Assembly (NCBI GenBank): GCA_905612315.1
Contig: CAJQSL010000020.1
Span: forward strand, 2,341 to 66,340
Direction of reading: 5' to 3'
Length of the DNA: 64,000 nt
From: an uncultured Francisellaceae bacterium
GTDB taxonomy: Bacteria; Pseudomonadota; Gammaproteobacteria; Francisellales; CACEW01
The notes beneath the pieces are model-generated. The model was given only the letters and a program-made list of their open reading frames with translations, was not told where the DNA came from and made no database searches. A program made the position numbers and the translations under genes. Shown one piece after another: positions 15,001 to 58,794 of the stretch (positions within the stretch are counted from its first letter, which is position 1; each line of letters starts with the position of its first letter).

Positions 15001-16242
15001 AGAGATGAAAGATCCGTACAGATTAAAACAGACCAAATAGAAAGATACAAAAATAATTTGGATGATGAGCTTAATATTTATAAAAATGTGTTACTTGGCA
15101 AGTTATCTAAGGGGCTTTGTTCTTGTAAAATTGCCAAGAAAGTAGGTAACTATGATAAAGGTGAGCCTATTACTGTTGAGCTTTTAGAAAAATTAGCTGT
15201 TAAGTATATGTTAGATTTAACAGTTAGTGATAAAAAAGTAATGGATGAGTTAAAAACATTACAGCTTCAGCTCAAAGATTATGAGCAGGATTGTCAAAAC
15301 AGATACCAGTATTATCATGACAAAATGATGAAAGGCGATGATTTATCACCTGGAGTAATTAAGATTGTTAAAGTATCTGTTGCGGTTAAGCGTAGGTTGC
15401 AACCGGGTGACAAGATGGCGGGACGACATGGTAATAAAGGTGTTATCTCTAGAGTTATGCCTGTTGAGGATATGCCTTATATGGCAGATGGAACCACTGC
15501 AGATGTTGTTCTTAATCCATTGGGCGTGCCTTCTCGTATGAATGTGGGGCAGATTTTAGAAACTCATTTAGGGTGGGCTGCTAAAGGTTTAGGTGCGAAA
15601 GTTTCTCAAATGTTAGATGCTTCTGTAAAATCTGCAGATTTAAGATCAATGCTCGATGCTATTTATAATAAGCATATGGATAAAAAAGTTGATTTTGCAG
15701 CATATTCAGATAAAGAGGTCGCATCTTTTGCTGAAGGTATTCGTGACGGTGTTCCAATTGCGACTCCAGTTTTTGATGGGGCTCGTGAGTCTCAAATTAA
15801 AGAGTTATTGAAGTTAGCTGATTTGTCAGAGTCTGGTCAAGTGACTTTGTACGATGGTCGTACAGGAGAAGTGTTTCAAAGACCAGTTACCGTGGGTTAT
15901 ATGTACATGTTGAAATTGAACCACCTTGTTGATGATAAAATGCATGCTAGATCAACTGGCTCTTATAGTTTAGTTACGCAGCAGCCATTGGGAGGTAAGG
16001 CCCAATTTGGTGGACAGCGTTTTGGTGAGATGGAAGTCTGGGCTCTAGAGGCATATGGTGCCGCATATACATTGCAAGAGGTTCTTACCGTGAAGTCGGA
16101 TGATATTCAAGGTAGAACACGCATGTATAAGAATATTGTTGATGGTGATTTTCGTATGGAGGCTAATATTCCAGAATCCTTTAAAGTATTGATGAAAGAA
16201 ATTCAGGCTTTGGGTATTAATATTGAACTTGAAAATGACTAA
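12088..16242 (+). CDS. rpoB: DNA-directed RNA polymerase beta subunit
   Basis: 1384 aa. Contains [30 protein letters not shown] (rifampicin region) and the conserved C-terminus. Confidence 0.99.
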
Positions 16243-16248
16243 ATACTT

Positions 16249-16281
16249 TTAGTTTTGTTTTTAGTTTTGTTTTTAGTTTTG
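16249..16281. repeat. Short tandem repeat (TTAGTTTTGTTT x 2.75) in the rpoB-rpoC spacer
   Basis: Read directly: ttagttttgttt ttagttttgttt ttagttttg. Confidence 0.9.
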
Positions 16282-16309
16282 GGTAGATTTTTTAGATAGG
16301 AGAAATCAG

Positions 16310-19300: not shown

Positions 19301-20602
19301 CCTTATGGGGCAGAGCTTCCAGTTTCAGATGGAGCTGAAGTTAATCCAGGGGATATAGTTGCTAATTGGGATCCGCATACCCAGCCAATTATTACTGAAG
19401 TAAGTGGTAGGGTTAAATATATAGACTTAGTTGAGGGTGTAAGTATACATGTTCAAACTGATGAACTAACTGGTTTGAGTAGTAAAGTAGTTACGCATGT
19501 TGCGCAAACTCGTAAGAAAAAGGATGCACTTAAGCCTATGATTAAGCTTGTCGATGACAAAGGTAAGGATGTTTATTTCTCAAACAGTAAGGTTCCAGCA
19601 GCTTACTTTTTGCCAGCAAATGCTATTATAGCTATTGATGATGGTCAAAAAGTATCAGTTGGTGATTTTATTGCTAGAGTTCCTCTTGAAGGATCAAAGA
19701 CAAAAGATATTACAGGTGGCTTGCCTAGGGTTGCTGATTTATTCGAAGCTCGTAAGCCTAAAGAGCATGCGATTATGGCTGAAATTTCAGGCATGGTTAG
19801 CTTTGGTAAAGAGACTAAGGGTAAACGACGTTTAGTATTAACACCCACTGATGGCGAAGCTGTTGAGACCATGATTCCTAAATGGCGTCATATAAACGTA
19901 TTTGAAGGTGAGCAAGTTCAACAGGGTGATATTGTCTCCGATGGTCCGATGAACCCGCATGATATTTTGAGACTAAAAAGTGTTAGCGCATTAGCTAATT
20001 ATTTAGTTAATGAGATTCAAGAGGTTTATAGACTTCAAGGTGTTAGAATTAATGATAAACATATTGAAGTTATTATTCGTCAGATGATTCGTAAGATTGA
20101 AGTTCAAAATCCTGGAGACAGCGAAGTATTAATCAAAGGTGAAATGGTGGAAAGAGCTCAGTTTTTTGGTGAAGTAGCGCGTTTAAAAGCTGAGAAGAAA
20201 GTTGAGCCTTTGGGTATTCCAATTCTATTAGGTATAACAAAAGCATCATTGTCTACTGACTCATTTATTTCAGCTGCATCTTTCCAAGAAACTACTCGAG
20301 TATTAACTGAGGCAGCGGTATCTGGTAAGACTGATGGTATGTTTGGTTTGAAAGAAAATGTTACAGTTGGTAGATTAATACCAGCAGGAACAGGCTTAGC
20401 TTACCATGATCTTCGTAAGGGTAGTGAAGCAAGTGCGGCCGCTGAATCTATGGGGCCAACAGCAGCAGAAGTTGAAAGCGCACTAAGTGAGGCTTTGAGT
20501 AAGCAGATGGGTGATGAGCCTGAGGTTGCTGAAGAGGCTTCAAAAGATGAGCCCGTGAAAGTTGAGCCCTCTTCCGATGATAATAAAGCTAAAGAAGACT
20601 AA
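16310..20602 (+). CDS. rpoC: DNA-directed RNA polymerase beta-prime subunit (acidic C-terminal tail)
   Basis: 1430 aa. TTG start preceded by AGGAG. Contains the catalytic motif NADFDGDQM. Confidence 0.99.
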
Positions 20603-20889: not shown

Positions 20890-21598
20890 TTGGGAGTGCT
20901 GTTGTCAACAGATGATATTGGTTATTCTGATGCTGTCGATGTCTCGAGTTCTTTTGCAGATGATAGCTCAAATTATGAATGTGAGAATTACTTTTCTAAT
21001 TATAATAACCCTAGATATTATAAACTTGTAAAATTTTTTGAAGATTATGTTGCTTCAGCTTTGATTTTAATATTAGTTGCTCCGTTGATGTTATTAATAG
21101 CCATATTAATAAAGCTTACATCTAAGGGGCCTGTTTTTTATAGACAAACTAGAGTGACAATAGCTGGAAAAACTTTTTTAATGCTAAAATTTAGGTCGAT
21201 GCCTGTTAATATAGAAAATAAATCAGGAGCTGTATGGTCGCAAAAATCTGATGATCGAGCTACTATTATTGGAAAGGTTTTAAGAAGAACCAGTTTAGAT
21301 GAGTTGCCTCAGTTTATTAATGTTCTTAAAGGGGAGATGTCTTTAATAGGTCCGAGGCCGGAGAGACCGGTTTTTGTAAAAAAATTTAAAAGTGAGATAA
21401 ATGGTTATTCTGACAGGCATGCAGTAAAAAACAGGAATTACTGGTTGGGCTCAGGTCCAGGGCTGGCGTGGAAGTACTGATCTACAGTCTCGAATAAATT
21501 GTGACTTATACTATATAAGAAACTGGTCTCCAATTTTAGATGTAAAAATAATAATAATTACTTTCTTAAAAGGGTTTATTCACAAAAATGCATACTAA
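20890..21598 (+). pseudogene. Initiating phosphoglycosyl transferase (bacterial sugar transferase, PglC/WbaP C-terminal type), interrupted by a +1 frameshift in an A6 run
   Basis: The track ORF (196 aa) has LKFRSM, DELPQFINVLKGEMSLIGPRPERP and RHAVK, then goes out of frame. Reading one nucleotide later from 21431 gives TGITGWAQVQGWRGSTDLQSRINCDLYYIRNWSPILDVKIIIITFLKGFIHKNAY, with a stop at 21596-21598. That is the canonical C-terminus of this family. Confidence 0.8.
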
Positions 21599-21801
21599 GT
21601 ATTTGTTTTTTTATATATTCAAGTAAAGTAGCATAATTGAAGTTTAAGGTTGACCAATTAGCCGAGGTGCCCAAATAATTTATTTAGATCTTGTTTCAAT
21701 TGTTTCTTTATGTTAGCTTAGGCTTTGCATCTTATTGCTGTTTATTGTCGCGGCCTTGTCGATGATATTACTATAAAACTAATACTTATTGGGAGAGGTA
21801 A

Positions 21802-22759: not shown

Positions 22760-23941
22760 ATGATTTTAGAAATAGATAATAATAGGTTAAAAAGGGGGAA
22801 GGGTATGGAATATATATTTGCGGATTATTTGATTAAATCTGATAACATAGATGAGGCGTCAATGGCGCTAGTTGTAGGACAGTCTATAGGCAATCCTTAT
22901 AAGCGATCTAATTATGAAACGGCAGAAATATTAAAAAGATACTATGCTACTGTTACTAGCATAGAGCAGAGCGGAGATGCCTATTTAGTAAAAACCAAAT
23001 TTCCTGTTGATTTATTTACTCCTGGCTCCTTTACTCATCTTGTAACGGTGCTTATGGGTGGTCAGATGGACATTGATATTATCAAATCATGTCGCTTGGT
23101 AAGGGTTGATCTTCCTGAGAAGTTTTCACGTTCTTTTCCTGGACCTAAATATGGCATAGAAGGCATTAGGCATCTTATCAAGGCCTATAACCGGCCACTG
23201 ATCGGGGGTATTGTCAAACCCAAGACTGGTCTAAGTTTGAGTGTTCTGTGTGAAATTGTTGAAAAAATGGTTTCAGGAGGAATAGATTTTATTAAAGAAG
23301 ATGAAATTCTTGGTGAAATACAAGGAGCCTGTGTCAAAGAAAGAATTAAGGCTGTGGCAAGTGTTTTAAAGGGTACAAATGTCATATTTGCTCCTGCAAT
23401 TAATGTGCCAATAAATCAGTATCAAGATATTGCTGAAGTACTTAATGCTTATGATAATATTTATGGATATCACTTAAATGTATGGGCTGGACTTGATGCC
23501 TTTCAATATCTATCTGCTCTTGCAAAAAAAGTATCATTCTATCAAAAGTCCGGTGATGGAGTTATTACTAGGGGAAGGTATTCAATATCTTTTGATGTCT
23601 GGTGTAGATTTGCTCGACTTGCTGGTGCAGATATGATTCATGTTGGTATGTTAGGAGGGTATTTGGATGAGCCGCAAGATGTGCTGCAAAGACGAATTGA
23701 TGCATTGCAAAACCCTTTTTATGGCCATAAGGGGACGATTCCTAGTTTTAGTTGTGGGGCCACTCCAGAGCATGTTCCTATGCTTCAAAAAATATTTGGA
23801 AATGATATTATGATTTCAGCTGGAGGATCTATCCATTCTCATAAAGATGGTAGTCTGGCGGGGGTTAGAGAGTTTCGTCAAATGGCTGATGCATGTGCAA
23901 CGACCATGTCTGAAAAAGGGTTAGAGCATGCAGAAGTATAA
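22760..23941 (+). CDS. RuBisCO-like protein (form IV RuBisCO large-subunit homologue)
   Basis: Motifs GGIVKPKTGLS and GGIDFIKEDE. LAGADMIHVGMLGGYLD and SAGGSIHSHKDG align to the RuBisCO active-site segments. An alternative start ATG at 22805 follows AAAGGGGGAAGGG. Confidence 0.85.
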   Translation: MILEIDNNRLKRGKGMEYIFADYLIKSDNIDEASMALVVGQSIGNPYKRSNYETAEILKRYYATVTSIEQSGDAYLVKTKFPVDLFTPGSFTHLVTVLMGGQMDIDIIKSCRLVRVDLPEKFSRSFPGPKYGIEGIRHLIKAYNRPLIGGIVKPKTGLSLSVLCEIVEKMVSGGIDFIKEDEILGEIQGACVKERIKAVASVLKGTNVIFAPAINVPINQYQDIAEVLNAYDNIYGYHLNVWAGLDAFQYLSALAKKVSFYQKSGDGVITRGRYSISFDVWCRFARLAGADMIHVGMLGGYLDEPQDVLQRRIDALQNPFYGHKGTIPSFSCGATPEHVPMLQKIFGNDIMISAGGSIHSHKDGSLAGVREFRQMADACATTMSEKGLEHAEV

Positions 23942-24254
23942 TATTAATAACTATAAGGAAGGATGGTTTATTGGTTGCTTTGAGCCATCTATTTTTAAAA
24001 CTAAAGATTTTGAAGTCGCTCTTAAAGTTCATCGTAAAGGCGAGCATATAGCTAAGCATCGCCATTTATTAGCAGTTGAAATGAACTTATGTATTTCAGG
24101 TGAGATGCATGTTAATGGTTGTGATATAAAAAAAGGCGATATTTTTGTGTTTGATAAAGGGGAAGCATGTGATGTTAATGTGATATCCGATGAGGTTCAA
24201 GTTATATGTGTTAAGTCACCATCAATTCCATCGGATAAAGAAATATGCGAATAG
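23928..24254 (+). CDS. Metal-binding cupin-domain protein
   Basis: 108 aa. Exact cupin motif 1, G-X5-H-X-H-X4-E-X6-G, in KGEHIAKHRHLLAVEMNLCISG. The start overlaps the RLP stop by 14 nt. Confidence 0.7.
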   Translation: MQKYNINNYKEGWFIGCFEPSIFKTKDFEVALKVHRKGEHIAKHRHLLAVEMNLCISGEMHVNGCDIKKGDIFVFDKGEACDVNVISDEVQVICVKSPSIPSDKEICE

Positions 24255-24982
24255 TAGTAATGCCTATGGCTGGATCTGGAAGTCGTTTTAGTAATCTCCA
24301 TCCAGACAAAAAATTAATGCCTATACCTCCTAATAATGATCCTATGTTTATCCATGCTATAAAGAATATTGGATTTGAATTTGATAAGATAGTTTTGTTG
24401 CCACAAAAAGCGAATCAAATAAATTCTGTATTGAATGACTTTAAGGAAATAAAAAAAAAATCAGTAGTTATTGAAACTAACAAGCTTACCAGGGGGCCGC
24501 TTGATACAGTTATGTATGCAAGGCAGTTTTTAGAAGAAAATCCACATGCACAGTTGCTTATTTGTAATTGTGATCAGGTTTTATCCTGGCCGGGTGATTG
24601 GGCACTGGAGTGGTTTCGAGATAGAAATGCTGTGGGAGGCATTCCTACTGTAGAAAGATATAGTGAAAGACACTCTTATGCAAAAATAGACGAAAATTAT
24701 GCATGTAAAATTATTGCGGTAAAAGAAAAGCAGAAGATATCAAATCGAGCCACTATTGGCTTATACTGGTTTCAAACTACATTCGGTTTTTTAAAAGCGG
24801 CAGATACTGTTTTTGATAAAAGAGATACGGCCCCCAATGGAGAGTATTATGTTTCGCATGTCTATAATTATTTGAAAGGACTGATTCTTGAGTATCCTTT
24901 GTGTGAGTTTTGGTCATTAGGAGAGCCGGAAAATTATCTAAATTATATTTCGAAAAATTATATGATAGGAATGGAGGGGTAG
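24245..24982 (+). CDS. Nucleotidyltransferase (sugar/alcohol-phosphate nucleotidylyltransferase fold)
   Basis: 245 aa. N-terminal MRIVVMPMAGSGSRF (the GxGxR signature of NTP-transferases). The start overlaps the cupin stop. Confidence 0.65.
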   Translation: MRIVVMPMAGSGSRFSNLHPDKKLMPIPPNNDPMFIHAIKNIGFEFDKIVLLPQKANQINSVLNDFKEIKKKSVVIETNKLTRGPLDTVMYARQFLEENPHAQLLICNCDQVLSWPGDWALEWFRDRNAVGGIPTVERYSERHSYAKIDENYACKIIAVKEKQKISNRATIGLYWFQTTFGFLKAADTVFDKRDTAPNGEYYVSHVYNYLKGLILEYPLCEFWSLGEPENYLNYISKNYMIGMEG

Positions 24983-27118
24983 TTGATAATGAAGTCTAGT
25001 TTTAAATCAAAGTCTATGCAGTTTTTTTTGCTTTCATTTGTGGTTTTACTGTTTAATGTTGTAATTTATAGCCCATCATTACGCTTTGATGTTACTAATG
25101 AAATGCCTTGGAGGCAAACAGATTCTCAGGCGGAGATTACCGCTTACGCTAAAAATACTACTAGGTTTTACTTGCCAACTGTTAATGCCTCGCTTAAAGA
25201 ATGGGGTCCGGGAGTTATAGAAATTGTTTTTCCTATTTATCAATTTGTTACTGGTAAAATGGTTCCACTTCTAACACCTTTAATAAAAAACAATTTGCAT
25301 TCAGATGTTAAAGGGCCAATTAAGCTTCCTTATGGTATGCATTTTAAAAAATATACTGAAAGTAAGATATTAAAAGGTGATAAAGTTATATATACCCTTA
25401 AGTTTACTCTAGCTCCATCATGGGAATATAAGCTTGCCACTTTGTTTCATAATAATATATCTCAATATTTGCATTTATATTTGGTTTCTAATAAAACCAG
25501 CATGGATAAAAAATGCATTTCATTGGAAGTTAATGGCAATGCTAGCGCAGATACGCCAAGAGAATATTGTTATTCTAATAATGTTATACCTGTTACTTAT
25601 ATTCCTATCTTGCCTGGAGAGAATACTTTTAAGTTTATTTTTAGTAAGAGTATGGCCCCAGGGAATTTAGAGTCGGCAATTAGTTTGTTCCCAACTTCTA
25701 AATACGCAAGTCCCATGTTATTTGTCGGGCGTTTGCTTAATATGTTTGCAGTTGTAGCTATTTCATTAATAATAGCTGTTACGTTTTTCCCTTCGTTAAA
25801 GTATAGATATGCATGTGCCATAGCAATTTCAGCTATACCTGCATTTGGATTTTTTGAAACCTTTATTCATGAAGAAATACAAGCATTTTTATTTGTGTCT
25901 ATTTTTCTTTGGGTTGTTTTTAAAAAGAACTTGAGTCTGAGGTGGTTAGTCTTTGCATCTGTATCTCTTTCAATAGCGGTAGCAATAAGGCCTTACTATA
26001 TTTTGTATAGTTTGATGCTTATTGCATTTATGTTTCGTCAGGATGGTTTTAATATGCTGAAAAAAGCTTCATATTATTTGGCGGGCATATTAATAATAAC
26101 CCCTGCTATATTATGGTATTCCTGGACACAGCACCTTGTTAGGAATGGCGCGGATACTATTGGTATTTTTTCAGGGCGTGTATTTTTGAGTTCTTTGCTT
26201 GATTCTGCGAAGTGGCATGCCTTTTTGGGATTTTTCACGAAGTTCCATTTCGGATTGCCAGTATTCTTTCTTTTTATAATTACAATAGTTGTTTATTTAT
26301 GCTTGCGCTTTAGTAAGAAAATAACATCAAATTTTAATTTTGATGTTTTTCTCGGAGTTGGCTTTATAATTAGTTTAATTTCTCTGCCTTTGATTTTTGA
26401 TTCAGCGTCAATACATAATTATTATTCATTTCCTATTACATCTTATTTTTCAATTGCTTCTATTATATGTTTTTATGAAATATATAAAAATATAGATAAA
26501 AAGCCATACTTGAATAAAAAAAATGAACTATTAAGATTTTCATTTAAAAATATTTTATTTCTTTCTTTTTTCTCTGTGATTATAGTGTCTGGAGTAGCTC
26601 ATACCTATGTTAGATTTTACAAAAATGAGAGAACAGTTTACGACCCGTTGGATTATGTATTATTGGGGGGAGTACCTGGAGAGATATTTTCAAGTAGTGA
26701 TAAAATTGTTTTATTAGGATCAGGTGGGCCGCAAGATTATGGCATGACTAATCGTAATGGAAGAAGAGATGCTGGATTTTATTCTGGATATCACTTCCAA
26801 TCTGTTTCAGAGATTAAAGAGGTGTTAAAAAATGAAAGAAAATATTCAGTAGATACATTAACAACATTTAATAATGATATTCAGCAATTCAAAATTAAAG
26901 ATGAGGATATGAAAAGTTTAACATATTATCTAAACACTTATTATGGACCCATTTCATCATATGCTGGCATTGGTAGTTGTAAGGCAGCTTTGCATAGAAC
27001 TAAAACTTGGGATTTATATACAAAGTTTATATACGAGCTGGCAAAAAATACAAAGGGAAGTGTTGTGTATAAGTATCTAGTAAGCACCCCTTGTTTATTT
27101 ATAAAGTTTCCAAAGTAA
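24983..27118 (+). CDS. Polytopic GT-C-type glycosyltransferase-like membrane protein (copy 1)
   Basis: 711 aa. N-terminal TM, a large hydrophilic insert, about 10 further TMs and a soluble C-terminal domain. Its position next to GT2 + GtrA fits a three-component (GtrABC/ArnCT-like) periplasmic glycosylation system. The real start may be the ATG at 24989. Confidence 0.55.
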   Translation: MIMKSSFKSKSMQFFLLSFVVLLFNVVIYSPSLRFDVTNEMPWRQTDSQAEITAYAKNTTRFYLPTVNASLKEWGPGVIEIVFPIYQFVTGKMVPLLTPLIKNNLHSDVKGPIKLPYGMHFKKYTESKILKGDKVIYTLKFTLAPSWEYKLATLFHNNISQYLHLYLVSNKTSMDKKCISLEVNGNASADTPREYCYSNNVIPVTYIPILPGENTFKFIFSKSMAPGNLESAISLFPTSKYASPMLFVGRLLNMFAVVAISLIIAVTFFPSLKYRYACAIAISAIPAFGFFETFIHEEIQAFLFVSIFLWVVFKKNLSLRWLVFASVSLSIAVAIRPYYILYSLMLIAFMFRQDGFNMLKKASYYLAGILIITPAILWYSWTQHLVRNGADTIGIFSGRVFLSSLLDSAKWHAFLGFFTKFHFGLPVFFLFIITIVVYLCLRFSKKITSNFNFDVFLGVGFIISLISLPLIFDSASIHNYYSFPITSYFSIASIICFYEIYKNIDKKPYLNKKNELLRFSFKNILFLSFFSVIIVSGVAHTYVRFYKNERTVYDPLDYVLLGGVPGEIFSSSDKIVLLGSGGPQDYGMTNRNGRRDAGFYSGYHFQSVSEIKEVLKNERKYSVDTLTTFNNDIQQFKIKDEDMKSLTYYLNTYYGPISSYAGIGSCKAALHRTKTWDLYTKFIYELAKNTKGSVVYKYLVSTPCLFIKFPK

Positions 27119-27142
27119 CAAATTGTTTTTATGGTTTAAATT

Positions 27143-28000
27143 ATGAAAGATATAGGTGTAGATAGTCTGCTTTCTTGTGAAGTTGCCAAAGCCTGTGATG
27201 ACTACTTGTCTTTACTAAATGTTTCTATAGATACTATAAATATTAAAAGTCTTGATAAAGATTCTTTAATAAAGAATTATTCGTTAATTAGCAAAAAAGA
27301 GCTGACTCTTATATCAGTTTTTTATAACGAGCAGTCTAATGTCATGCCTTTTTATTTAGAATGCAGGCGACTAAATAGAATTTTTAATATTAAAAACTTT
27401 ATTTTTGTACAAAATGGATCAACTGATAATACAGAAAAACTATTGGACAAACTAAGTGAGTTGGATTCCCGGGTTAAAATAGTAACTATAGAAAATAATC
27501 AAGGATATGGTTATGGATTTAAACAGGGCCTTGCGGCGAGTAAAACTGACTTAGTATTATTAAATCACTCAGATTGCCAATTCGATGCGTATGCTTATTT
27601 TACTCAGCACTTTCCTTTAGTTATGAGTTTTGATCCAGAGGTTGATTTGCTTATTCCTGTAAGAAGGGGGCGTACATTTTATCCAAAGATTCGTAGCATT
27701 GCCCTTAGGTGTCTAGCTTCTATAATACTCAGGCAGGCTGTTGTAGAATTTAATGGCCAACCAAAAATATTTTTGAAAAGCAAAATTAAAAATCTAGATT
27801 TATTGCCAAATGACTTTTGTTTTGATGCTGCCGTAATTCATCAGCTTTTAAAGCAGTATAAACGTAGGTTCTTTCTTGATTCTGTTGAATTGCCAAGGTT
27901 TGATGGTGTTTCTTCATGGTCCAGGCTGCTGTCAGGTCAAGTTAAGTTAACTTGGAGTTATATTTTTGGCATTTTAAAGCTTAAAAGATGTAGGTTTTAG
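27143..28000 (+). CDS. GT2-family glycosyltransferase, polyprenyl-phosphate sugar synthase-like (copy 1)
   Basis: 285 aa. Contains LTLISVFYNEQSNV ... FVQNGSTDNT ... NQGYGYGFKQGL ... LLNHSDCQFD (GT-A fold with a DxD-like motif). Confidence 0.7.
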   Translation: MKDIGVDSLLSCEVAKACDDYLSLLNVSIDTINIKSLDKDSLIKNYSLISKKELTLISVFYNEQSNVMPFYLECRRLNRIFNIKNFIFVQNGSTDNTEKLLDKLSELDSRVKIVTIENNQGYGYGFKQGLAASKTDLVLLNHSDCQFDAYAYFTQHFPLVMSFDPEVDLLIPVRRGRTFYPKIRSIALRCLASIILRQAVVEFNGQPKIFLKSKIKNLDLLPNDFCFDAAVIHQLLKQYKRRFFLDSVELPRFDGVSSWSRLLSGQVKLTWSYIFGILKLKRCRF

Positions 28001-28017
28001 TTGAGAGTTTTTTTATT

Positions 28018-28479
28018 ATGATAATTATAGCTCATAGAGGTAATATTAATGGTATAAATAGTACCAATCATAATGTGGCTAAAATTTGGGATGCAATTGA
28101 AGATGGATTTTATGTAGAACTAGATCTTTGGTGTATTAAAAACAATTATTATCTAGGGCATGACAAACCTGAGGTACAAATTCAGCTGACAGATTTTGAT
28201 CACCCTCAAGTTTTTTTTCACCTTAAGAATCTTTTTCTACCAAAGTTAAAATTTGCAGATGCTTTTGCTATTAATAATGATGATTATGTGTTTACGCTGC
28301 GTGATAAATTATGGTGCAATTATAAAGTGGGGTATTCGAATGATTCTATCATATGTGCTCCTGAGCTTGTTGGATCTACCGATAATTTGGATGATTTCAT
28401 AAATGGTCATCGGGGAGCGTTTGGTATATGTACAGATTATGGCATGAAAGTAAGAAATATTCTTAGTAGCCTAGTATGA
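28018..28479 (+). CDS. Short glycerophosphodiester phosphodiesterase (GDPD)-like protein (copy 1)
   Basis: 153 aa. Has IAHRGN, VELDLW and LGHDKP, matching the GDPD catalytic HR..E.D..HD pattern. It is much shorter than a full GDPD barrel. Confidence 0.5.
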   Translation: MIIIAHRGNINGINSTNHNVAKIWDAIEDGFYVELDLWCIKNNYYLGHDKPEVQIQLTDFDHPQVFFHLKNLFLPKLKFADAFAINNDDYVFTLRDKLWCNYKVGYSNDSIICAPELVGSTDNLDDFINGHRGAFGICTDYGMKVRNILSSLV

Positions 28480-28874
28480 TATTATATAAGCAATATAAAT
28501 CTATATTTTTTCAGTTATGTCGTTTTGGAATTGTTGGCGTAAGTGCAGTAATTATAAATTTATTAATTGTGATTTTTATTGTAGAGACATTTGATTGGCC
28601 GCCATTATTGGCAAATATTATTGGATTTATTGTTGCTTGTCAGGTTGCTTTCTTGGGTCATAATTTATGGACTTTTAAAATGGATACCGACGCAAGTAAC
28701 TCTTGGTTGAAGTTTGTGATGGTTGCGACTTTTAGTTTGGGTTTAACTCAATTATTGTTTTTTATTTTACTGCAAGTTTTCGCTTTATATTATGTTTTTG
28801 CTTTAATTCTGACTCAAATGCTAGTTCCTATTGTGACATTTTTATTGAGTAAATACTGGGCTTTTAGGCATTGA
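28476..28874 (+). CDS. GtrA-family small membrane protein (lipid-linked sugar translocation) (copy 1)
   Basis: 132 aa with four TMs. N-terminal FQLCRFGIVGVSAVIINLLI and C-terminal KYWAFR are typical of the GtrA family. Overlaps the preceding stop by 4 nt. Confidence 0.75.
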   Translation: MILYKQYKSIFFQLCRFGIVGVSAVIINLLIVIFIVETFDWPPLLANIIGFIVACQVAFLGHNLWTFKMDTDASNSWLKFVMVATFSLGLTQLLFFILLQVFALYYVFALILTQMLVPIVTFLLSKYWAFRH

Positions 28875-28937
28875 TTTAGGTGCTGGATTTTGCCTTGGGT
28901 TAGTGTTATTGTTTAAATCTTATTTTAGTGAGTGTAG

Positions 28938-29255
<318 letters not shown>

Positions 29256-29354
29256 TATGATCTATGTCTGTTTGTTAAATATATGGGTTACAAAGGCAGT
29301 AAAAAAAAGTAAAACCTATTTTTCATAAGAGTGCTTTAAGTTTTAAAAAATAAT

Positions 29355-31274
29355 GTGGGGGTTATTGTGAATATTATAATGCCAATTAATGGTATTGGTA
29401 GTCGTTTTGTTAATGAGTCATACCTGACCCCTAAGTCACTTATAAAGATTTTGGGAAAGCCGATGATAGTTCGTGTAATTGAGTCTCTTTCCTTAACGCA
29501 AAGTGATTTGATTACTATAATTTATCGCAGTTCATTAGATGAAATGGGTTTTTGCGATTTATTGAAGCATTATTTTGGCGAGTTTAATTTTAATTTCATT
29601 CCCATTTGCCATGATACTAAAGGTGCGGCTGATACTGTTTTGCGGGGAATTGCAAGTTTATCCTTAGGTGCTTTAGATGTTCCACAACTTATTCTCGATT
29701 GTGATACTATTTATCATGGAGACATTATTCATGAGTATAAAAAGTATCAAGATAATAGGATATTTTACTTTCATGATTTAGAAGGTGAACCAATCTATTC
29801 ATATATAGAAGTTGATGAAAATTTTTATGTACGAAATATAGCGGAAAAGAGGAAGATATCACATTATGCTAGTGTGGGTTGCTATGGTTTTAAAAATGGT
29901 TTATTGTTGCGGAAATATTGTGAGAAAGCCATTAGTTCACTAAACAGTGGAAATGAGCGTTACATCTCCGATGTTTATGGGTCAATGCTAAGGGATGGCA
30001 TATCAGTTGGTGCGAGTCAATATGAGAAATTTAGCTGTGTTGGAACACCTCTTCAGTTAAAATATTTTTCATCATTGCCAGATAATAGTGATAGAGTATT
30101 ACGTTTTTGTTTTGATATTGATAATACGCTAGTTACCTATCCTGCGGTTAGAGGAGACTACTCAACTGTACGTCCTATACCTGAAGTAATTTCATTTTTG
30201 AAAATAGTTAAGTCTCTAGGACACTACATAATTCTTTACACCGCTCGCCGAATGAAAACACACAATGGGAATGTTAAAGCTGTTATAGAAGATATAAAGG
30301 AAGTAACTCTTGCAACACTTTCAAAATTCGAGATTCCCTTCGATGAAATTAATTTTGGCAAGCCGTACGCAGATTTTTATATTGATGATTTAGCGATCGA
30401 CCCTAAAAAGTGCCTTGAAAAGCAAACAGGATTTTATGACCTGGATATTATGCCAAGAGACTACCATACATTGAATGTTATCGATGGGTGGTATAAAAAA
30501 TCAGGTAATATTCAAGGTGAATTGTTTTGGTATAATTCAGTTCCCAAACAACTTAGTATATTTTTGCCAGATCATAGGTCAATAAATGACGAAGAGCTAT
30601 TAACGAAAAAAGTTGAGGGGCTATCTTTCACTCACTTATTTATTAACAATGCCCTTAAGTCTGATTACTTGGAGAAGTTGTTAAATGCTCTTGATATAAT
30701 ACATTCATATCCCATTTCTGAAAAACTTGACAACCAAAATCTAATTTATTTGAATTATGCCAAAAAGCTTAAAGAAAGGTTCGATGGCTATTCATATAGT
30801 AGATTTGAAAGGAGTCAAGAGGTCTATGATTTCTTGTTATCATCATTAGTTTCCTATTCTGATCAGAATTTGGGGGTTTTAGGAATAATTCATGGTGATC
30901 CTGTTTTCACCAACTGTTTTCTCACAACCAATGGTAAAATTAAGTTTATTGATCCTCGTGGAGAGTTGGGACATGAAAAGTCAATTTATGGTGATATATT
31001 TTATGATCTGTCAAAAGTATATCAGTCATTGGTTGGTTATGACTTTATAGTGATGGGAAAAGTATTAGATTTTAAAGCTATACAATCTCTAAAGTCTTTT
31101 TTTGAAAATTACGTTGAGGATAGGTGGGGAAGGCATAGGATGTCACACATAAAAATAATTACAGCCGCTAATCTTTTTTCTCTTATTCCTCTTCATAATA
31201 ACGATAAGTGTAAGTTTTATTATGATTTAATAGGTGAGATAAATCTTGATCTATCTAAGGAGGTAATATTTTGA
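29355..31274 (+). CDS. Trifunctional fusion: nucleotidyltransferase - HAD phosphatase - APH/choline-kinase-like kinase
   Basis: 639 aa. N-terminus MPINGIGSRF resembles the 245-aa nucleotidyltransferase. The middle has HAD motifs FCFDIDNTLV, ILYTARR and GKPYADFYIDDLAI. The C-terminus has the kinase Brenner-type motif IIHGDPVFTNCF and FIDPRG. The likely start is the GTG at 29367 or the ATG at 29379. Confidence 0.65.
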   Translation: MGVIVNIIMPINGIGSRFVNESYLTPKSLIKILGKPMIVRVIESLSLTQSDLITIIYRSSLDEMGFCDLLKHYFGEFNFNFIPICHDTKGAADTVLRGIASLSLGALDVPQLILDCDTIYHGDIIHEYKKYQDNRIFYFHDLEGEPIYSYIEVDENFYVRNIAEKRKISHYASVGCYGFKNGLLLRKYCEKAISSLNSGNERYISDVYGSMLRDGISVGASQYEKFSCVGTPLQLKYFSSLPDNSDRVLRFCFDIDNTLVTYPAVRGDYSTVRPIPEVISFLKIVKSLGHYIILYTARRMKTHNGNVKAVIEDIKEVTLATLSKFEIPFDEINFGKPYADFYIDDLAIDPKKCLEKQTGFYDLDIMPRDYHTLNVIDGWYKKSGNIQGELFWYNSVPKQLSIFLPDHRSINDEELLTKKVEGLSFTHLFINNALKSDYLEKLLNALDIIHSYPISEKLDNQNLIYLNYAKKLKERFDGYSYSRFERSQEVYDFLLSSLVSYSDQNLGVLGIIHGDPVFTNCFLTTNGKIKFIDPRGELGHEKSIYGDIFYDLSKVYQSLVGYDFIVMGKVLDFKAIQSLKSFFENYVEDRWGRHRMSHIKIITAANLFSLIPLHNNDKCKFYYDLIGEINLDLSKEVIF

Positions 31275-31348
31275 GTCAAGGACTAGTTTTACATTTGACT
31301 TATTAAGAGTTATGTTGGAAAAATTATATAATAGGAATAGAGGGTTAG

Positions 31349-33484
31349 TTGATAGTGAAGTCTAGTTTTAAATCAAAGTCTATGCAGTTTTTTTTGCTTT
31401 CATTTGTGGTTTTACTGTTTAATGTTGTAATTTATAGCCCATCATTACGCTTTGATGTTACTAATGAAATGCCTTGGAGGCAAACAGATTCTCAGGCGGA
31501 GATTACCGCTTACGCTAAAAATACTACTAGGTTTTACTTGCCAACTGTTAATGCCTCGCTTAAAGAATGGGGTCCGGGAGTTATAGAAATTGTTTTTCCT
31601 ATTTATCAATTTGTTACTGGTAAAATGGTTCCACTTCTAACACCTTTAATAAAAAACAATTTGCATTCAGATGTTAAAGGGCCAATTAAGCTTCCTTATG
31701 GTATGCATTTTAAAAAATATACTGAAAGTAAGATATTAAAAGGTGATAAAGTTATATATACCCTTAAGTTTACTCTAGCTCCATCATGGGAATATAAGCT
31801 TGCCACTTTGTTTCATAATAATATATCTCAATATTTGCATTTATATTTGGTTTCTAATAAAACCAGCATGGATAAAAAATGCATTTCATTGGAAGTTAAT
31901 GGCAATGCTAGCGCAGATACGCCAAGAGAATATTGTTATTCTAATAATGTTATACCTGTTACTTATATTCCTATCTTGCCTGGAGAGAATACTTTTAAGT
32001 TTATTTTTAGTAAGAGTATGGCCCCAGGGAATTTAGAGTCGGCAATTAGTTTGTTCCCAACTTCTAAATACGCAAGTCCCATGTTATTTGTCGGGCGTTT
32101 GCTTAATATGTTTGCAGTTGTAGCTATTTCATTAATAATAGCTGTTACGTTTTTCCCTTCGTTAAAGTATAGATATGCATGTGCCATAGCAATTTCAGCT
32201 ATACCTGCATTTGGATTTTTTGAAACCTTTATTCATGAAGAAATACAAGCATTTTTATTTGTGTCTATTTTTCTTTGGGTTGTTTTTAAAAAGAACTTGA
32301 GTCTGAGGTGGTTAGTCTTTGCATCTGTATCTCTTTCAATAGCGGTAGCAATAAGGCCTTACTATATTTTGTATAGTTTGATGCTTATTGCATTTATGTT
32401 TCGTCAGGATGGTTTTAATATGCTGAAAAAAGCTTCATATTATTTGGCGGGCATATTAATAATAACCCCTGCTATATTATGGTATTCCTGGACACAGCAC
32501 CTTGTTAGGAATGGCGCGGATACTATTGGTATTTTTTCAGGGCGTGTATTTTTGAGTTCTTTGCTTGATTCTGCGAAGTGGCATGCCTTTTTGGGATTTT
32601 TCACGAAGTTCCATTTCGGATTGCCAGTATTCTTTCTTTTTATAATTACAATAGTTGTTTATTTATGCTTGCGCTTTAGTAAGAAAATAACATCAAATTT
32701 TAATTTTGATGTTTTTCTCGGAGTTGGCTTTATAATTAGTTTAATTTCTCTGCCTTTGATTTTTGATTCAGCGTCAATACATAATTATTATTCATTTCCT
32801 ATTACATCTTATTTTTCAATTGCTTCTATTATATGTTTTTATGAAATATATAAAAATATAGATAAAAAGCCATACTTGAATAAAAAAAATGAACTATTAA
32901 GATTTTCATTTAAAAATATTTTATTTCTTTCTTTTTTCTCTGTGATTATAGTGTCTGGAGTAGCTCATACCTATGTTAGATTTTACAAAAATGAGAGAAC
33001 AGTTTACGACCCGTTGGATTATGTATTATTGGGGGGAGTACCTGGAGAGATATTTTCAAGTAGTGATAAAATTGTTTTATTAGGATCAGGTGGGCCGCAA
33101 GATTATGGCATGACTAATCGTAATGGAAGAAGAGATGCTGGATTTTATTCTGGATATCACTTCCAATCTGTTTCAGAGATTAAAGAGGTGTTAAAAAATG
33201 AAAGAAAATATTCAGTAGATACATTAACAACATTTAATAATGATATTCAGCAATTCAAAATTAAAGATGAGGATATGAAAAGTTTAACATATTATCTAAA
33301 CACTTATTATGGACCCATTTCATCATATGCTGGCATTGGTAGTTGTAAGGCAGCTTTGCATAGAACTAAAACTTGGGATTTATATACAAAGTTTATATAC
33401 GAGCTGGCAAAAAATACAAAGGGAAGTGTTGTGTATAAGTATCTAGTAAGCACCCCTTGTTTATTTATAAAGTTTCCAAAGTAA
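31349..33484 (+). CDS. Polytopic GT-C-type glycosyltransferase-like membrane protein (copy 2)
   Basis: Translation identical to 24983..27118 except residue 3 (V instead of M). Confidence 0.55.
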   Translation: MIVKSSFKSKSMQFFLLSFVVLLFNVVIYSPSLRFDVTNEMPWRQTDSQAEITAYAKNTTRFYLPTVNASLKEWGPGVIEIVFPIYQFVTGKMVPLLTPLIKNNLHSDVKGPIKLPYGMHFKKYTESKILKGDKVIYTLKFTLAPSWEYKLATLFHNNISQYLHLYLVSNKTSMDKKCISLEVNGNASADTPREYCYSNNVIPVTYIPILPGENTFKFIFSKSMAPGNLESAISLFPTSKYASPMLFVGRLLNMFAVVAISLIIAVTFFPSLKYRYACAIAISAIPAFGFFETFIHEEIQAFLFVSIFLWVVFKKNLSLRWLVFASVSLSIAVAIRPYYILYSLMLIAFMFRQDGFNMLKKASYYLAGILIITPAILWYSWTQHLVRNGADTIGIFSGRVFLSSLLDSAKWHAFLGFFTKFHFGLPVFFLFIITIVVYLCLRFSKKITSNFNFDVFLGVGFIISLISLPLIFDSASIHNYYSFPITSYFSIASIICFYEIYKNIDKKPYLNKKNELLRFSFKNILFLSFFSVIIVSGVAHTYVRFYKNERTVYDPLDYVLLGGVPGEIFSSSDKIVLLGSGGPQDYGMTNRNGRRDAGFYSGYHFQSVSEIKEVLKNERKYSVDTLTTFNNDIQQFKIKDEDMKSLTYYLNTYYGPISSYAGIGSCKAALHRTKTWDLYTKFIYELAKNTKGSVVYKYLVSTPCLFIKFPK

Positions 33485-33508
33485 CAAATTGTTTTTATGG
33501 TTTAAATT

Positions 33509-34366
33509 ATGAAAGATATAGGTGTAGATAGTCTGCTTTCTTGTGAAGTTGCCAAAGCCTGTGATGACTACTTGTCTTTACTAAATGTTTCTATAGATAC
33601 TATAAATATTAAAAGTCTTGATAAAGATTCTTTAATAAAGAATTATTCGTTAATTAGCAAAAAAGAGCTGACTCTTATATCAGTTTTTTATAACGAGCAG
33701 TCTAATGTCATGCCTTTTTATTTAGAATGCAGGCGACTAAATAGAATTTTTAATATTAAAAACTTTATTTTTGTACAAAATGGATCAACTGATAATACAG
33801 AAAAACTATTGGACAAACTAAGTGAGTTGGATTCCCGGGTTAAAATAGTAACTATAGAAAATAATCAAGGATATGGTTATGGATTTAAACAGGGCCTTGC
33901 GGCGAGTAAAACTGACTTAGTATTATTAAATCACTCAGATTGCCAATTCGATGCGTATGCTTATTTTACTCAGCACTTTCCTTTAGTTATGAGTTTTGAT
34001 CCAGAGGTTGATTTGCTTATTCCTGTAAGAAGGGGGCGTACATTTTATCCAAAGATTCGTAGCATTGCCCTTAGGTGTCTAGCTTCTATAATACTCAGGC
34101 AGGCTGTTGTAGAATTTAATGGCCAACCAAAAATATTTTTGAAAAGCAAAATTAAAAATCTAGATTTATTGCCAAATGACTTTTGTTTTGATGCTGCCGT
34201 AATTCATCAGCTTTTAAAGCAGTATAAACGTAGGTTCTTTCTTGATTCTGTTGAATTGCCAAGGTTTGATGGTGTTTCTTCATGGTCCAGGCTGCTGTCA
34301 GGTCAAGTTAAGTTAACTTGGAGTTATATTTTTGGCATTTTAAAGCTTAAAAGATGTAGGTTTTAG
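33509..34366 (+). CDS. GT2-family glycosyltransferase (copy 2)
   Basis: Translation identical to 27143..28000. Confidence 0.7.
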   Translation: MKDIGVDSLLSCEVAKACDDYLSLLNVSIDTINIKSLDKDSLIKNYSLISKKELTLISVFYNEQSNVMPFYLECRRLNRIFNIKNFIFVQNGSTDNTEKLLDKLSELDSRVKIVTIENNQGYGYGFKQGLAASKTDLVLLNHSDCQFDAYAYFTQHFPLVMSFDPEVDLLIPVRRGRTFYPKIRSIALRCLASIILRQAVVEFNGQPKIFLKSKIKNLDLLPNDFCFDAAVIHQLLKQYKRRFFLDSVELPRFDGVSSWSRLLSGQVKLTWSYIFGILKLKRCRF

Positions 34367-34383
34367 TTGAGAGTTTTTTTATT

Positions 34384-34845
34384 ATGATAATTATAGCTCA
34401 TAGAGGTAATATTAATGGTATAAATAGTACCAATCATAATGTGGCTAAAATTTGGGATGCAATTGAAGATGGATTTTATGTAGAACTAGATCTTTGGTGT
34501 ATTAAAAACAATTATTATCTAGGGCATGACAAACCTGAGGTACAAATTCAGCTGACAGATTTTGATCACCCTCAAGTTTTTTTTCACCTTAAGAATCTTT
34601 TTCTACCAAAGTTAAAATTTGCAGATGCTTTTGCTATTAATAATGATGATTATGTGTTTACGCTGCGTGATAAATTATGGTGCAATTATAAAGTGGGGTA
34701 TTCGAATGATTCTATCATATGTGCTCCTGAGCTTGTTGGATCTACCGATAATTTGGATGATTTCATAAATGGTCATCGGGGAGCGTTTGGTATATGTACA
34801 GATTATGGCATGAAAGTAAGAAATATTCTTAGTAGCCTAGTATGA
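34384..34845 (+). CDS. Short GDPD-like protein (copy 2)
   Basis: Translation identical to 28018..28479. Confidence 0.5.
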   Translation: MIIIAHRGNINGINSTNHNVAKIWDAIEDGFYVELDLWCIKNNYYLGHDKPEVQIQLTDFDHPQVFFHLKNLFLPKLKFADAFAINNDDYVFTLRDKLWCNYKVGYSNDSIICAPELVGSTDNLDDFINGHRGAFGICTDYGMKVRNILSSLV

Positions 34846-35240
34846 TATTATATAAGCAATATAAATCTATATTTTTTCAGTTATGTCGTTTTGGAATTGT
34901 TGGCGTAAGTGCAGTAATTATAAATTTATTAATTGTGATTTTTATTGTAGAGACATTTGATTGGCCGCCATTATTGGCAAATATTATTGGATTTATTGTT
35001 GCTTGTCAGGTTGCTTTCTTGGGTCATAATTTATGGACTTTTAAAATGGATACCGACGCAAGTAACTCTTGGTTGAAGTTTGTGATGGTTGCGACTTTTA
35101 GTTTGGGTTTAACTCAATTATTGTTTTTTATTTTACTGCAAGTTTTCGCTTTATATTATGTTTTTGCTTTAATTCTGACTCAAATGCTAGTTCCTATTGT
35201 GACATTTTTATTGAGTAAATACTGGGCTTTTAGGCATTGA
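34842..35240 (+). CDS. GtrA-family membrane protein (copy 2)
   Basis: Translation identical to 28476..28874. Confidence 0.75.
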   Translation: MILYKQYKSIFFQLCRFGIVGVSAVIINLLIVIFIVETFDWPPLLANIIGFIVACQVAFLGHNLWTFKMDTDASNSWLKFVMVATFSLGLTQLLFFILLQVFALYYVFALILTQMLVPIVTFLLSKYWAFRH

Positions 35241-35303
35241 TTTAGGTGCTGGATTTTGCCTTGGGTTAGTGTTATTGTTTAAATCTTATTTTAGTGAGTG
35301 TAG

Positions 35304-36407
<1,104 letters not shown>

Positions 36408-43014: not shown

Positions 43015-43070
43015 TTTGTATAAACTCCATTAAGTTACAATAATAACTGATAAAACTAAAAGTAAGCTTG

Positions 43071-45491: not shown

Positions 45492-45492
45492 G

Positions 45493-57327: not shown

Positions 57328-57448
57328 GGAAAACAAGGTCGTTTTTCTAAAGTTTTTCAAAAGTCATGTTAACTTTTTAGTTTTGATTAATTAATCTAGA
57401 TGACATATGATCGTTATATTAAAAAAACCCCACTTTTGGCGCTATATT

Positions 57449-58770: not shown

Positions 58771-58794
58771 TTTTGATATGGTGGGTATACGTTA

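Follow-up and report, generated by a model that had tools for sequence, protein, structure and literature searches.

The DNA examined here is a window of 64,000 nucleotides from an uncultured Francisellaceae bacterium (contig CAJQSL010000020.1 of assembly GCA_905612315.1), and our subject is the interval 22760-31274 within it, which opens with the gene of a RuBisCO-like protein (RLP). The interval encodes, in this order, the RLP, a small cupin, a nucleotidyltransferase of 245 aa (NTP245), a polytopic membrane protein of 711 aa, a GT2 glycosyltransferase, a phosphodiesterase-like protein of 153 aa (p153), a GtrA-family membrane protein, a 5' fragment of pseB and a protein of 639 aa in which a nucleotidyltransferase, a HAD phosphatase and an APH-fold kinase domain are joined. 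These genes form part of a longer run, from 20.9 to 42.2 kb, in which every gene lies on the + strand, 3' of rpoB and rpoC. A first-pass annotation had likened the RLP, the cupin, the HAD phosphatase and the kinase to the enzymes of Bacillus-type methionine salvage. The RLP, the HAD domain, the APH-like kinase domain and both nucleotidyltransferase domains are indeed encoded on the + strand, at the positions given below. We regard it as moderately probable that the interval is made up of two separate nucleotide-activation modules and one lipid-linked transfer block, placed at the head of a pseudaminic-acid-type O-antigen or capsule locus.

The RLP is encoded by an open reading frame (ORF) of 393 aa (22760-23941, +; Pfam RuBisCO_large 8e-32, plus the N-terminal domain). 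Its true start is probably at 22805, since homologues begin at Met16. Judged by its sequence, the protein founds a distinct clade, whose alignment contains the invariant motifs GQSIGNP, GGQMDID, VKPK, FIKEDE, YQKSGD and IHVGMxGGY. The best match in the PDB is the form III enzyme 2cwx (5e-40), with the MtnW structure 2oek at 1.5e-30, and bit scores of 141 for archaeal form III RuBisCO and 110 for MtnW place the RLP slightly nearer to the former. It stays under every curated cut-off, reaching 167 of 497 bits for rubisco_III and 128 of 700 bits for OiaX.

Much of the RuBisCO active site is retained. Lys175, Lys177, Lys201, Asp203, Glu204, His327, Ser379 and the P1-site glycines are found in the RLP as K153, K155, K179, D181, E182, H294, S331, G333 and G355-G356. 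The loop-6 Lys334 of carboxylases is replaced by an invariant Tyr301, His294, Arg295 and His298 have become Gln262, Lys263 and Asp266, and both Glu60 and Asn123 are Gln, leaving the full carboxylase catalytic set incomplete. As the Mg/carbamate site is kept and Lys334 is lost, the RLP looks able to bind Mg2+ and to enolise a phosphorylated keto-sugar, but not to carboxylate it; judged from these residues, Mg2+ binding and enolisation are plausible and carboxylation is not. Membership of the MtnW family fails on two counts. The MtnW equivalog models are far from reached (TIGR03332, 114.4 bits against a cut-off of 513.6; NF007095, 150.4 against 409), and the catalytic general base of MtnW, Lys98 in Geobacillus numbering and at the position of RuBisCO Asn123, aligns with the clade-invariant Gln102 in the alignment to 2oek.

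The next gene encodes a single-domain cupin of 108 aa (23928-24254, +). As a single sequence it lies below the Pfam threshold (Cupin_2 E=0.0024), and a profile built from 11 members of its family matches solved cupins at E=3e-5. An exhaustive HMMER search gathered 576 representatives of this family, where a word-index search had returned one relative only; an AlphaFold2 (AF2) model built from a two-sequence alignment was unusable (pLDDT 32). His44 and Glu51 alone are invariant among the canonical metal ligands, His35 is nearly so and position 46 is His or Gln; Lys96, Asp103 and Lys104 are further invariant residues. The cupin assignment of the first-pass annotation therefore stands, whereas the metal binding it had added is plausible from these residues. 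Nothing links the protein to MtnD: no acireductone dioxygenase (ARD) model in Pfam or NCBIfam matched up to E=10, a profile search of the PDB returned generic cupins only, and the 3-His-1-Glu metal site of the ARD type is not conserved.

NTP245 (24245-24982, +; PF00483; best PDB match 4evw, 8e-7) shares 27% identity with the N-terminal domain of the 639-aa protein. The RLP-linked transferases and that domain fall into the same subfamily, both with 4evw as best match at 27-30% identity. Fusion of an NTP245-type transferase to the cupin is found in 26 of the 150 best cupin-family representatives. This resembles the type II PMI-GMP enzymes (AlgA, ManC, XanB), in which a transferase carries a C-terminal cupin, and the architecture suggests that the cupin is a sugar-phosphate isomerase serving the transferase. 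Unlike those enzymes, the cupin has no PF01050 match, is only ~105 aa long and has an RLP and a mini-GDPD among its partners. Many transferase-X-cupin proteins of 420-520 aa carry a middle segment of ~90 aa; we compared this segment with HAD domains and rejected the match. One metagenomic protein of 314 aa (P0280) joins the cupin to an FkbM methyltransferase.

Four kilobases 3' of the RLP lies p153 (copy 1 at 28018-28479, +), which has no Pfam match and which the profile search relates to GDPD structures (3i10, E=8e-6; 7e0v, 3e-4). H6, R7, N9, E34, D36, H48, D49, H68 and K70 are invariant, and the GDPD catalytic order HR...E.D...HD is kept in H6, R7, E34, D36 and H48. Family members are 140-165 aa long and only their first ~110 residues align to GDPDs, short of the full (beta/alpha)8 barrel of ~240 aa. 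By these features p153 is a half-length, phosphodiesterase-like member of the GDPD superfamily.

We compared the proteins of the window by tblastn with 124 non-redundant RLP loci, 44 cellular and 80 viral. Clade relatives of the RLP were found at 41 genome loci and on 367 IMG/VR contigs, 80 of which were fetched for neighbourhood analysis; the viral label is that of IMG/VR, and we treat these contigs as putative viral. The nearest relatives, at ~70% identity, come from Legionella drozanskii, L. nautarum, L. maceachernii and a Tatlockia metagenome-assembled genome (MAG), and the window RLP and NTP245 are both most similar to Legionella/Tatlockia proteins (62-71%). At 33-50% identity the clade extends to Azospirillum, Nonomuraea, Turneriella, Elusimicrobia, Verrucomicrobia, Bacteroidota, many Pelagibacteraceae and DPANN archaea.

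An NTP245-type transferase adjoins the RLP in 117 of the 124 loci. The pairing is seen in the four Legionella and Tatlockia genomes, in Azospirillum, Nonomuraea, Turneriella, Elusimicrobia, Pelagibacteraceae and DPANN, and in 77 of the 80 fetched contigs. The other partners are less constant: p153 adjoins the RLP in 85 loci, the cupin in 66, a full-length GDPD without p153 in 10 and LicD in five, all of them Legionella-type. In the SAR11 and DPANN loci the GDPD partner is a standard enzyme of 254-258 aa (PF03009, 5e-16). In 100 of the 124 loci there is exactly one class of phosphodiester-type enzyme (p153, GDPD or LicD) or else a combination of p153 and GDPD, and LicD never coincides with p153 or GDPD at any of them. 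The commonest viral order is transferase-cupin-RLP-p153, and the Legionella loci hold a minimal cassette of LicD, RLP and transferase, with no p153, cupin or HAD. A neighbouring Legionella protein of 150 aa was considered as a hidden p153 homologue and rejected (hhalign probability 0.2; the N-terminus resembles a secretion signal).

Gene fusions tie the four parts of this cassette together. Besides the transferase-cupin proteins, the metagenomic proteins P0065 (550 aa) and P0286 (261 aa) fuse p153 to the RLP and the cupin to p153, respectively. Conservation in more than 100 loci places the grouping of RLP, cupin and nucleotidyltransferase beyond chance. From its recurrence beside the RLP we assign p153 to the RLP cassette in spite of its distance in the window; on the same comparative grounds, NTP245 is the constant partner of the RLP and the cupin an optional member. 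The neighbouring genes are consistently those of glycan synthesis, namely NDP-sugar dehydratases and epimerases, methyltransferases, GT2, GT61, CMP-transferases and DegT aminotransferases. Most of the 80 fetched contigs (L052-L131) carry the four-gene order within glycan gene islands, and two of them are labelled giant-virus MAGs. In a group of Pelagibacteraceae (SAR11) loci (L004, L015, L017-L022) p153 and the RLP are separated by a second, divergent transferase-like gene of 245 aa, and the opposite strand carries a gene for a full-length GDPD-like protein; these loci thus hold a six-gene cassette variant in a hypervariable glycan region. The proposal that the RLP had been recruited to build an activated surface-glycan unit is thus strongly supported on comparative grounds by the transferase pairing, the glycan neighbourhoods and the fusions, even as the analogy to the Bacillus mtn set from which it had been drawn falls away. 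A full-text literature search, with key subscription papers outside its reach, returned no paper linking RLPs to glycan synthesis. The RLP cassette is to that extent previously undescribed; its clade might coincide with Tabita's 'IV-GOS' group.

Tentatively, and with a confidence that stops a little short of even, we propose that the RLP clade provides the committed enzyme of an unrecognised route that leads from a central keto-sugar phosphate to a nucleotide-activated donor, which is installed by a LicD- or GDPD-type enzyme, probably as a phosphodiester-linked substituent of pentulose or pentose type. Here, the RLP would enolise and isomerise or epimerise a phosphorylated keto-sugar from central metabolism, such as ribulose-5-phosphate, xylulose-5-phosphate or a pentulose bisphosphate. 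The cupin domain of the type II PMI-GMP enzymes suggests a parallel role for the cupin here, which would adjust the product by aldose-ketose isomerisation or by epimerisation. NTP245 would then turn the product phosphate into an NDP- or CDP-linked donor, and LicD, GDPD or p153 would install the donor unit on the glycan. Since LicD can take the place of p153 or GDPD, a phosphodiester-linked substituent is the likeliest outcome. Such a route would resemble the TarI/TarJ and Bcs1 systems for CDP-ribitol and LicC/LicD, with which it would share a small phosphorylated unit derived from a pentulose phosphate, a nucleotidyltransferase of ~240 aa and installation by the LicD family; the Legionella cassettes are exactly LicD-RLP-transferase. 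It would differ from these CDP-alcohol systems in that an RLP, with isomerase or enolase chemistry, forms the unit in place of their reductase, and in that most cassettes carry a GDPD-type enzyme and not LicD.

The same genes could also be read as a source of pentofuranose-1-phosphate that starts from a bisphosphate precursor and replaces the kinase route, with an NDP-pentofuranose then used for ordinary glycosyl transfer. In such a scheme p153 would open a cyclic phosphate (5-phosphoribosyl-1,2-cyclic phosphate) or act on a diester derived from phosphoribosyl pyrophosphate, the cupin and the RLP would interconvert ribose-, ribulose- and xylulose-1,5-bisphosphate, a phosphatase would remove the 5-phosphate and the transferase would activate the sugar. 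3-Epimerisation is a known side reaction of RuBisCO, and GDPD and PI-PLC enzymes handle cyclic phosphates, which is in keeping with the step given to p153. In the RLP the P1-site glycines are retained and the P2 site is partly so, with Lys263 standing in for Arg295. Its partner transferases belong to the subfamily of the 639-aa N-terminal domain, one viral cassette (L054) carries a transferase-HAD fusion (E=4e-21), and GT2 genes flank the cassette at several loci. However, the Legionella loci that have no p153, cupin or HAD still keep RLP, transferase and LicD, the HAD fusion occurs at only one of the 80 viral loci, Asp266 in place of His298 disfavours a second phosphate and the chemistry is entirely speculative. 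We judge this scheme to be quite unlikely, and prefer the route to a phosphodiester-linked substituent for the RLP cassette.

The second activation module consists of the 639-aa protein alone (29355-31274, +). Residues 5-240 form a nucleotidyltransferase domain (29367-30074, +; PF00483). Residues 246-352 form a HAD phosphatase domain (30090-30410, +), which matches TIGR01689, 'capsule biosynthesis phosphatase', at 5e-17 and PDB 1xpj at 1.3e-12. Both the DxDxT motif (ORF residues 254-258) and the distal DD motif are present; 1xpj and 9iqw are the neighbours of the domain in the PDB, and all other family matches are generic HAD-III models. Residues ~385-639 (~30507-31271, +) were assigned to an APH-fold sugar kinase from an AF2 model and Foldseek, the Pfam APH match being weak (E=0.009). 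The C-terminal 275 residues are modelled with a pLDDT of 92 in an APH/choline-kinase fold, with the catalytic motif HGDxxxxN at residues 513-520, and Foldseek relates the model at probability 1.0 to choline and ethanolamine kinases, LicA, APH and NahK in the PDB.

A rival reading takes the 639-aa protein for a kinase and cytidylyltransferase of the LicA/LicC kind, acting on choline or ethanolamine, which would make CDP-choline or CDP-ethanolamine for decoration with phosphocholine or phosphoethanolamine. The best solved neighbours of the kinase are indeed ethanolamine and choline kinases and the pneumococcal LicA (TMq 0.5-0.64), and the neighbouring RLP cassette pairs with LicD in Legionella. 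Viral transferase-kinase fusions of AfhE type fit better, however (TMq 0.68-0.92, E down to 6e-26), and they outrank the generic choline and aminoglycoside kinases as neighbours of the kinase domain: a 635-aa Indivirus orthologue reaches a TM score of 0.92, phage transferase-kinase fusions reach 0.72-0.79 and RB69 ORF052c 0.68. The sequence similarity likewise goes to the arabinose-5-phosphate kinase domain of phages. The HAD domain is of the AfhF/1xpj/TIGR01689 family, a choline pathway would have no use for a phosphatase, and no LicD is encoded in the window. A choline-type function is, in our estimate, very unlikely.

Approximately 2000 full-length homologues of the 639-aa protein were found, often labelled 'capsule biosynthesis phosphatase', and the contexts sampled look phage-like or giant-virus-like. 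Homologues on virus-like contigs (L048-L050) include one beside eukaryote-type glycosyltransferases (GT7, GT11, GT90) and a collagen-repeat protein, and another that shares a phage-like region with genes for Thg1, an RNA ligase and a thymidylate-synthase homologue. The HAD-kinase part is matched by 307 GenBank phage records, mostly T4-like viruses of Escherichia, Shigella, Acinetobacter and Serratia, in which the matches are two adjacent genes next to an arabinose-5-phosphate isomerase gene. In phage mobillu, the C-terminal half of a 'GlmU-like' protein shares 28% identity with the kinase domain over 190 aa (E=2e-17) and the common motif IHGDPxFxN...KFIDPRG, and a 128-aa 'capsule biosynthesis protein' shares 31% identity with the HAD domain over 105 aa (E=2e-13). 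PMC13326640, a paper summarising work by He et al. 2026 and Mahler et al. 2025, describes AfhE as an arabinose-5-phosphate 1-kinase and UDP-arabinose pyrophosphorylase and AfhF as a phosphatase that converts the 1,5-bisphosphate to the 1-phosphate; these activities are reported there for E. coli phage HY126, with homologues in RB69 (gp51, gp52:53) and DLP3 (gp81, gp82).

The 639-aa protein is thus a fused member of the AfhE/AfhF kind: the alignments establish the homology of the kinase and HAD domains, and from them we infer the identity of the sugar. The three activities and folds appear to be the same (PF00483 transferase, APH-fold C1 kinase, 1xpj-type HAD). In the window they are fused in a single protein in the order transferase-HAD-kinase, whereas the phages use two proteins; furthermore, the phage system lies next to an arabinose-5-phosphate isomerase and serves DNA hypermodification, while the product in the window would feed a surface glycan. 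In the proposed sequence of events, the APH-fold kinase phosphorylates C1 of a sugar-5-phosphate, the HAD domain would then take off the 5-phosphate and the N-terminal domain would form the NDP-sugar. The likeliest product would be UDP-D-arabinofuranose made from arabinose-5-phosphate, a compound that Gram-negative bacteria already make for Kdo. A similar logic, in which the phosphate is moved to C1 before nucleotidylation, is found in HddA-GmhB-HddC (GDP-heptose) and MupP-AmgK-MurU (UDP-MurNAc). The anomeric kinases AmgK and NahK have the APH fold, and our kinase domain counts NahK among its structural neighbours. In contrast to the window protein, the heptose route uses a GHMP kinase, the substrates of both systems are different and their three domains are unfused.

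The comparative data also speak to whether the two activation modules belong together. The methionine-salvage reading holds that RLP, cupin, HAD and APH-like kinase are one pathway, descended from or convergent with that of Bacillus, which acts on a 5-substituted ribose or ribulose phosphate. All four superfamilies do lie within 8.5 kb on one strand. MtnK and the AfhE-type kinases are alike in having the APH fold and in phosphorylating C1 of a 5-substituted pentofuranose, which amounts to a loose mechanistic echo of methionine salvage. MtnW, the 2,3-diketo-5-methylthiopentyl-1-phosphate enolase of Bacillus and Geobacillus, and the R. rubrum RLP 1,3-isomerase share with the window RLP the superfamily, the carbamyl-Lys/Asp/Glu metal site, the retained Lys175 equivalent and the lost Lys334. 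Moreover, a small cupin gene stands beside the R. rubrum RLP, and such RLP-cupin pairs are known from the methylthioadenosine-isoprenoid shunt of Rhodospirillum rubrum (see the literature listed in PMC6302742).

However, the kinase domain is absent from all 44 cellular and all 80 viral RLP loci, and kinase-HAD and RLP never occur together in the 124 other RLP loci or in the 307 phage genomes with AfhE/AfhF-like genes; the combination is seen in this window only. A bridge is offered by the viral cassette L054 (4544-5650), whose transferase is fused to a HAD domain homologous to that of the 639-aa protein, with 26% identity over 352 aa. All Mtn models were missed or stayed far under their cut-offs, Lys98 is Gln and no ARD-type match was found for the cupin. 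The HAD domain, with no match to the MtnX equivalog, sits in the TIGR01689/1xpj family, and the kinase domain matched no MtnK model, MtnK itself being outside the 50 best structural neighbours in the Foldseek search of the PDB. The window RLP also has the RuBisCO-type KPK motif, which MtnW does not, as well as Gln102 for Lys98, and its clade is partnered by a nucleotidyltransferase and a phosphodiester enzyme in glycan loci and not by mtn genes. The first-pass annotation had noted that MtnA/MtnB-type enzymes are lacking, and this is borne out: neither mtn genes nor SIS-type isomerases were matched among the proteins of the whole 64-kb window in Pfam and NCBIfam. It had also named beforehand, as one half of the evidence that would refute its own reading, a grouping of the domains with other subfamilies, and this is how two of them group: the HAD with a capsule phosphatase, and the kinase with phage and giant-virus nucleotidyltransferase-kinase fusions, RB69 ORF052c included, followed by choline/ethanolamine kinases and LicA. 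Finally, two repeat copies enclose the unique segment that carries the 639-aa gene, a layout suggestive of separate acquisition. A single Mtn-like pathway is largely refuted by these data, and we would give it only a slim chance. We see instead two modules that occur independently, with the 639-aa protein, by its distribution, separate from the RLP cassette.

Between the two modules lies the transfer block. Its first gene encodes the 711-aa polytopic protein (copy 1 at 24983-27118, +), for which hydropathy predicts an N-terminal transmembrane (TM) helix, a loop of ~200 aa, a TM cluster at 242-542 and a C-terminal domain of ~170 aa; its position suggests a candidate periplasmic transferase in a GtrC-like role. 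The GT2 enzyme (copy 1 at 27143-28000, +; 285 aa; PF00535, 1.5e-14) has no predicted TM helix and a weak NCBIfam match to PgfS, and is a candidate polyprenyl-phosphate sugar synthase with a GtrB-like role. The GtrA-family protein (copy 1 at 28476-28874, +; PF04138, 1.9e-23) has at least three hydrophobic segments and would act as a flippase. Measured against the GtrABC type, GtrA is thus found at PF04138 2e-23, GT2 at family level with no TM helices, and the 711-aa protein is polytopic with no family. The block resembles GtrA/GtrB/GtrC of Shigella and Salmonella phages and bacteria in having GtrA, a GT2 and a large polytopic protein beside an O-antigen locus. It differs in the lack of the C-terminal TM helices typical of GtrB, in the cytoplasmic mini-GDPD between GT2 and GtrA and in the 711-aa protein. 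The lipid-linked transfer apparatus of the first-pass annotation is accordingly present as regards GtrA, GT2 and a polytopic protein of 711 aa, with the last of these falling outside any matched family. We propose that GT2 would load the sugar onto undecaprenyl phosphate, that GtrA would flip it and that the 711-aa protein would transfer it to the polymer in the periplasm; p153, encoded inside the block, may add the unit made by the RLP cassette. At the far end of the glycan locus (57407-60878), a GT2 of 323 aa, a GtrA-family protein of 131 aa and a 516-aa protein with no family match make up a further Gtr-like triad.

The transfer block is part of a direct repeat, absent from the first-pass annotation, of which one copy takes up about half of the interval 22760-31274. 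Copy 1 (24946-29239) takes in the final 37 bp of NTP245 at one end and stops near codon 87 of pseB at the other, in the pseB 5' fragment (91-aa ORF; 28980-29255, +). Copy 2 (31311-35605) begins with the same last 37 bp of NTP245 and runs into an intact pseB; it holds the second copies of the 711-aa protein (31349-33484), GT2 (33509-34366), p153 (34384-34845) and GtrA (34842-35240). The unique segment between them (29240-31310; 2.07 kb) holds the 639-aa gene. By blastn the copies, of 4295 bp, are 99.74% identical, with 10 mismatches and one gap, all near the edges, and the pseB fragment matches the first ~87 residues of full PseB except for three.

The repeat could be a genuine duplication into which a gene was inserted, or else an artefact of assembly. 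If two strain variants had been merged during assembly, the repeat-unique-repeat layout and with it the physical linkage of the 639-aa gene to the RLP would be unreal. The interior ~4 kb of the copies are 100% identical, as would be expected if an assembly path had collapsed or been used twice. The DNA comes from one contig of 70.8 kb, no relative reaches 90% identity to the EF-Tu of the uncultured source, and no public sequencing run contains more than 19% of the words of 28800-31400. On the other hand, the differences between the copies are concentrated in the pseB fragment and at the left end, and there is a defined junction between the truncated pseB and the unique sequence. Such a pattern agrees with a real duplication in which gene conversion has homogenised the interior. 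We consider an artefact unlikely, though a serious possibility.

The surroundings are those of a surface-glycan locus. The glycan genes follow rpoB and rpoC (12088-20602), and copy 2 of the repeat leads into an intact PseB-type UDP-GlcNAc 4,6-dehydratase (35346-36407, +; PF02719, 2.6e-104), 3' of which lie genes for a DegT aminotransferase, a GNAT protein, a CMP-transferase, NeuB, a polysialyltransferase-like protein and a Wzy-like protein. The downstream genes are a pseudaminic-acid-type nonulosonic-acid locus for O-antigen or capsule, and the decoration modules sit in front of it. Within this locus, on the - strand (42235-48083), genes for a LuxE-LuxC fusion (806 aa), an Fe-alcohol dehydrogenase, an AMP-binding enzyme and an aminoglycoside-3-N-acetyltransferase-like protein may provide an unusual N-acyl group for the nonulosonic sugar. 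A Bac_transf initiating polyprenyl-phosphate sugar transferase (20890-21700) is frameshifted near 21440, with its C-terminal motif GITGWAQV...NWS..LD.KI resuming in the +1 frame, and is either a pseudogene or affected by a sequencing error. EF-Tu (6882-8069) and L7/L12 are the sole members of their 90%-identity clusters among 15 billion proteins, and the host lineage appears to be poorly sampled.

Several points weigh against the reading of the interval as two activation modules feeding a transfer block. The chemistry of the RLP cassette, with its substrate, nucleotide and product, is a prediction from sequence. The cupin and p153 are dispensable in some settings, as LicD, RLP and transferase suffice in Legionella, and p153 could act early, for example on a cyclic phosphate, and not as the installer. 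The GT2/GtrA context in the window suggests glycosyl transfer over phospho-transfer, and it is difficult to derive both modes from one donor. Sequence searches of Pfam, NCBIfam and the PDB gave no match for the 711-aa protein, so that its GT-C label comes from context only. As for the 639-aa protein, its N-terminal domain has no significant BLAST similarity to the N-terminal domain of phage AfhE. The 64-kb window contains no arabinose-5-phosphate isomerase (SIS-domain) gene, which means that a sugar other than arabinose may be involved; arabinose-5-phosphate could come from a housekeeping KdsD encoded elsewhere in the genome. Lastly, the viral origin of the IMG/VR contigs is putative. Only a few helicase and single-stranded DNA-binding protein matches were found in the ±6-kb surroundings of the RLP on these contigs, and the RLP had no match among 50,697 GenBank phage records.

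Characterised RLPs act in sulphur or methionine salvage, or in the catabolism of unusual sugars and sugar acids. If the proposed route is correct, the cassette described here would be the first case of an anabolic, glycan-building function for an RLP, and it would provide a testable function for a group of RLPs that includes members from SAR11 and DPANN. Putative viral contigs from uncultivated sources carry the cassette very commonly, as do hypervariable glycan islands of abundant marine bacteria. Its product is therefore probably a glycan substituent that is ecologically widespread but so far unrecognised, with relevance to phage-host recognition. With the 639-aa protein, the sugar-activation logic recently found in phage DNA arabinosylation would recur in one fused polypeptide, encoded both in surface-glycan loci of bacteria and by giant viruses. 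Culturable Legionella species that carry the minimal three-gene cassette would make the question of what the RLP route produces directly testable.

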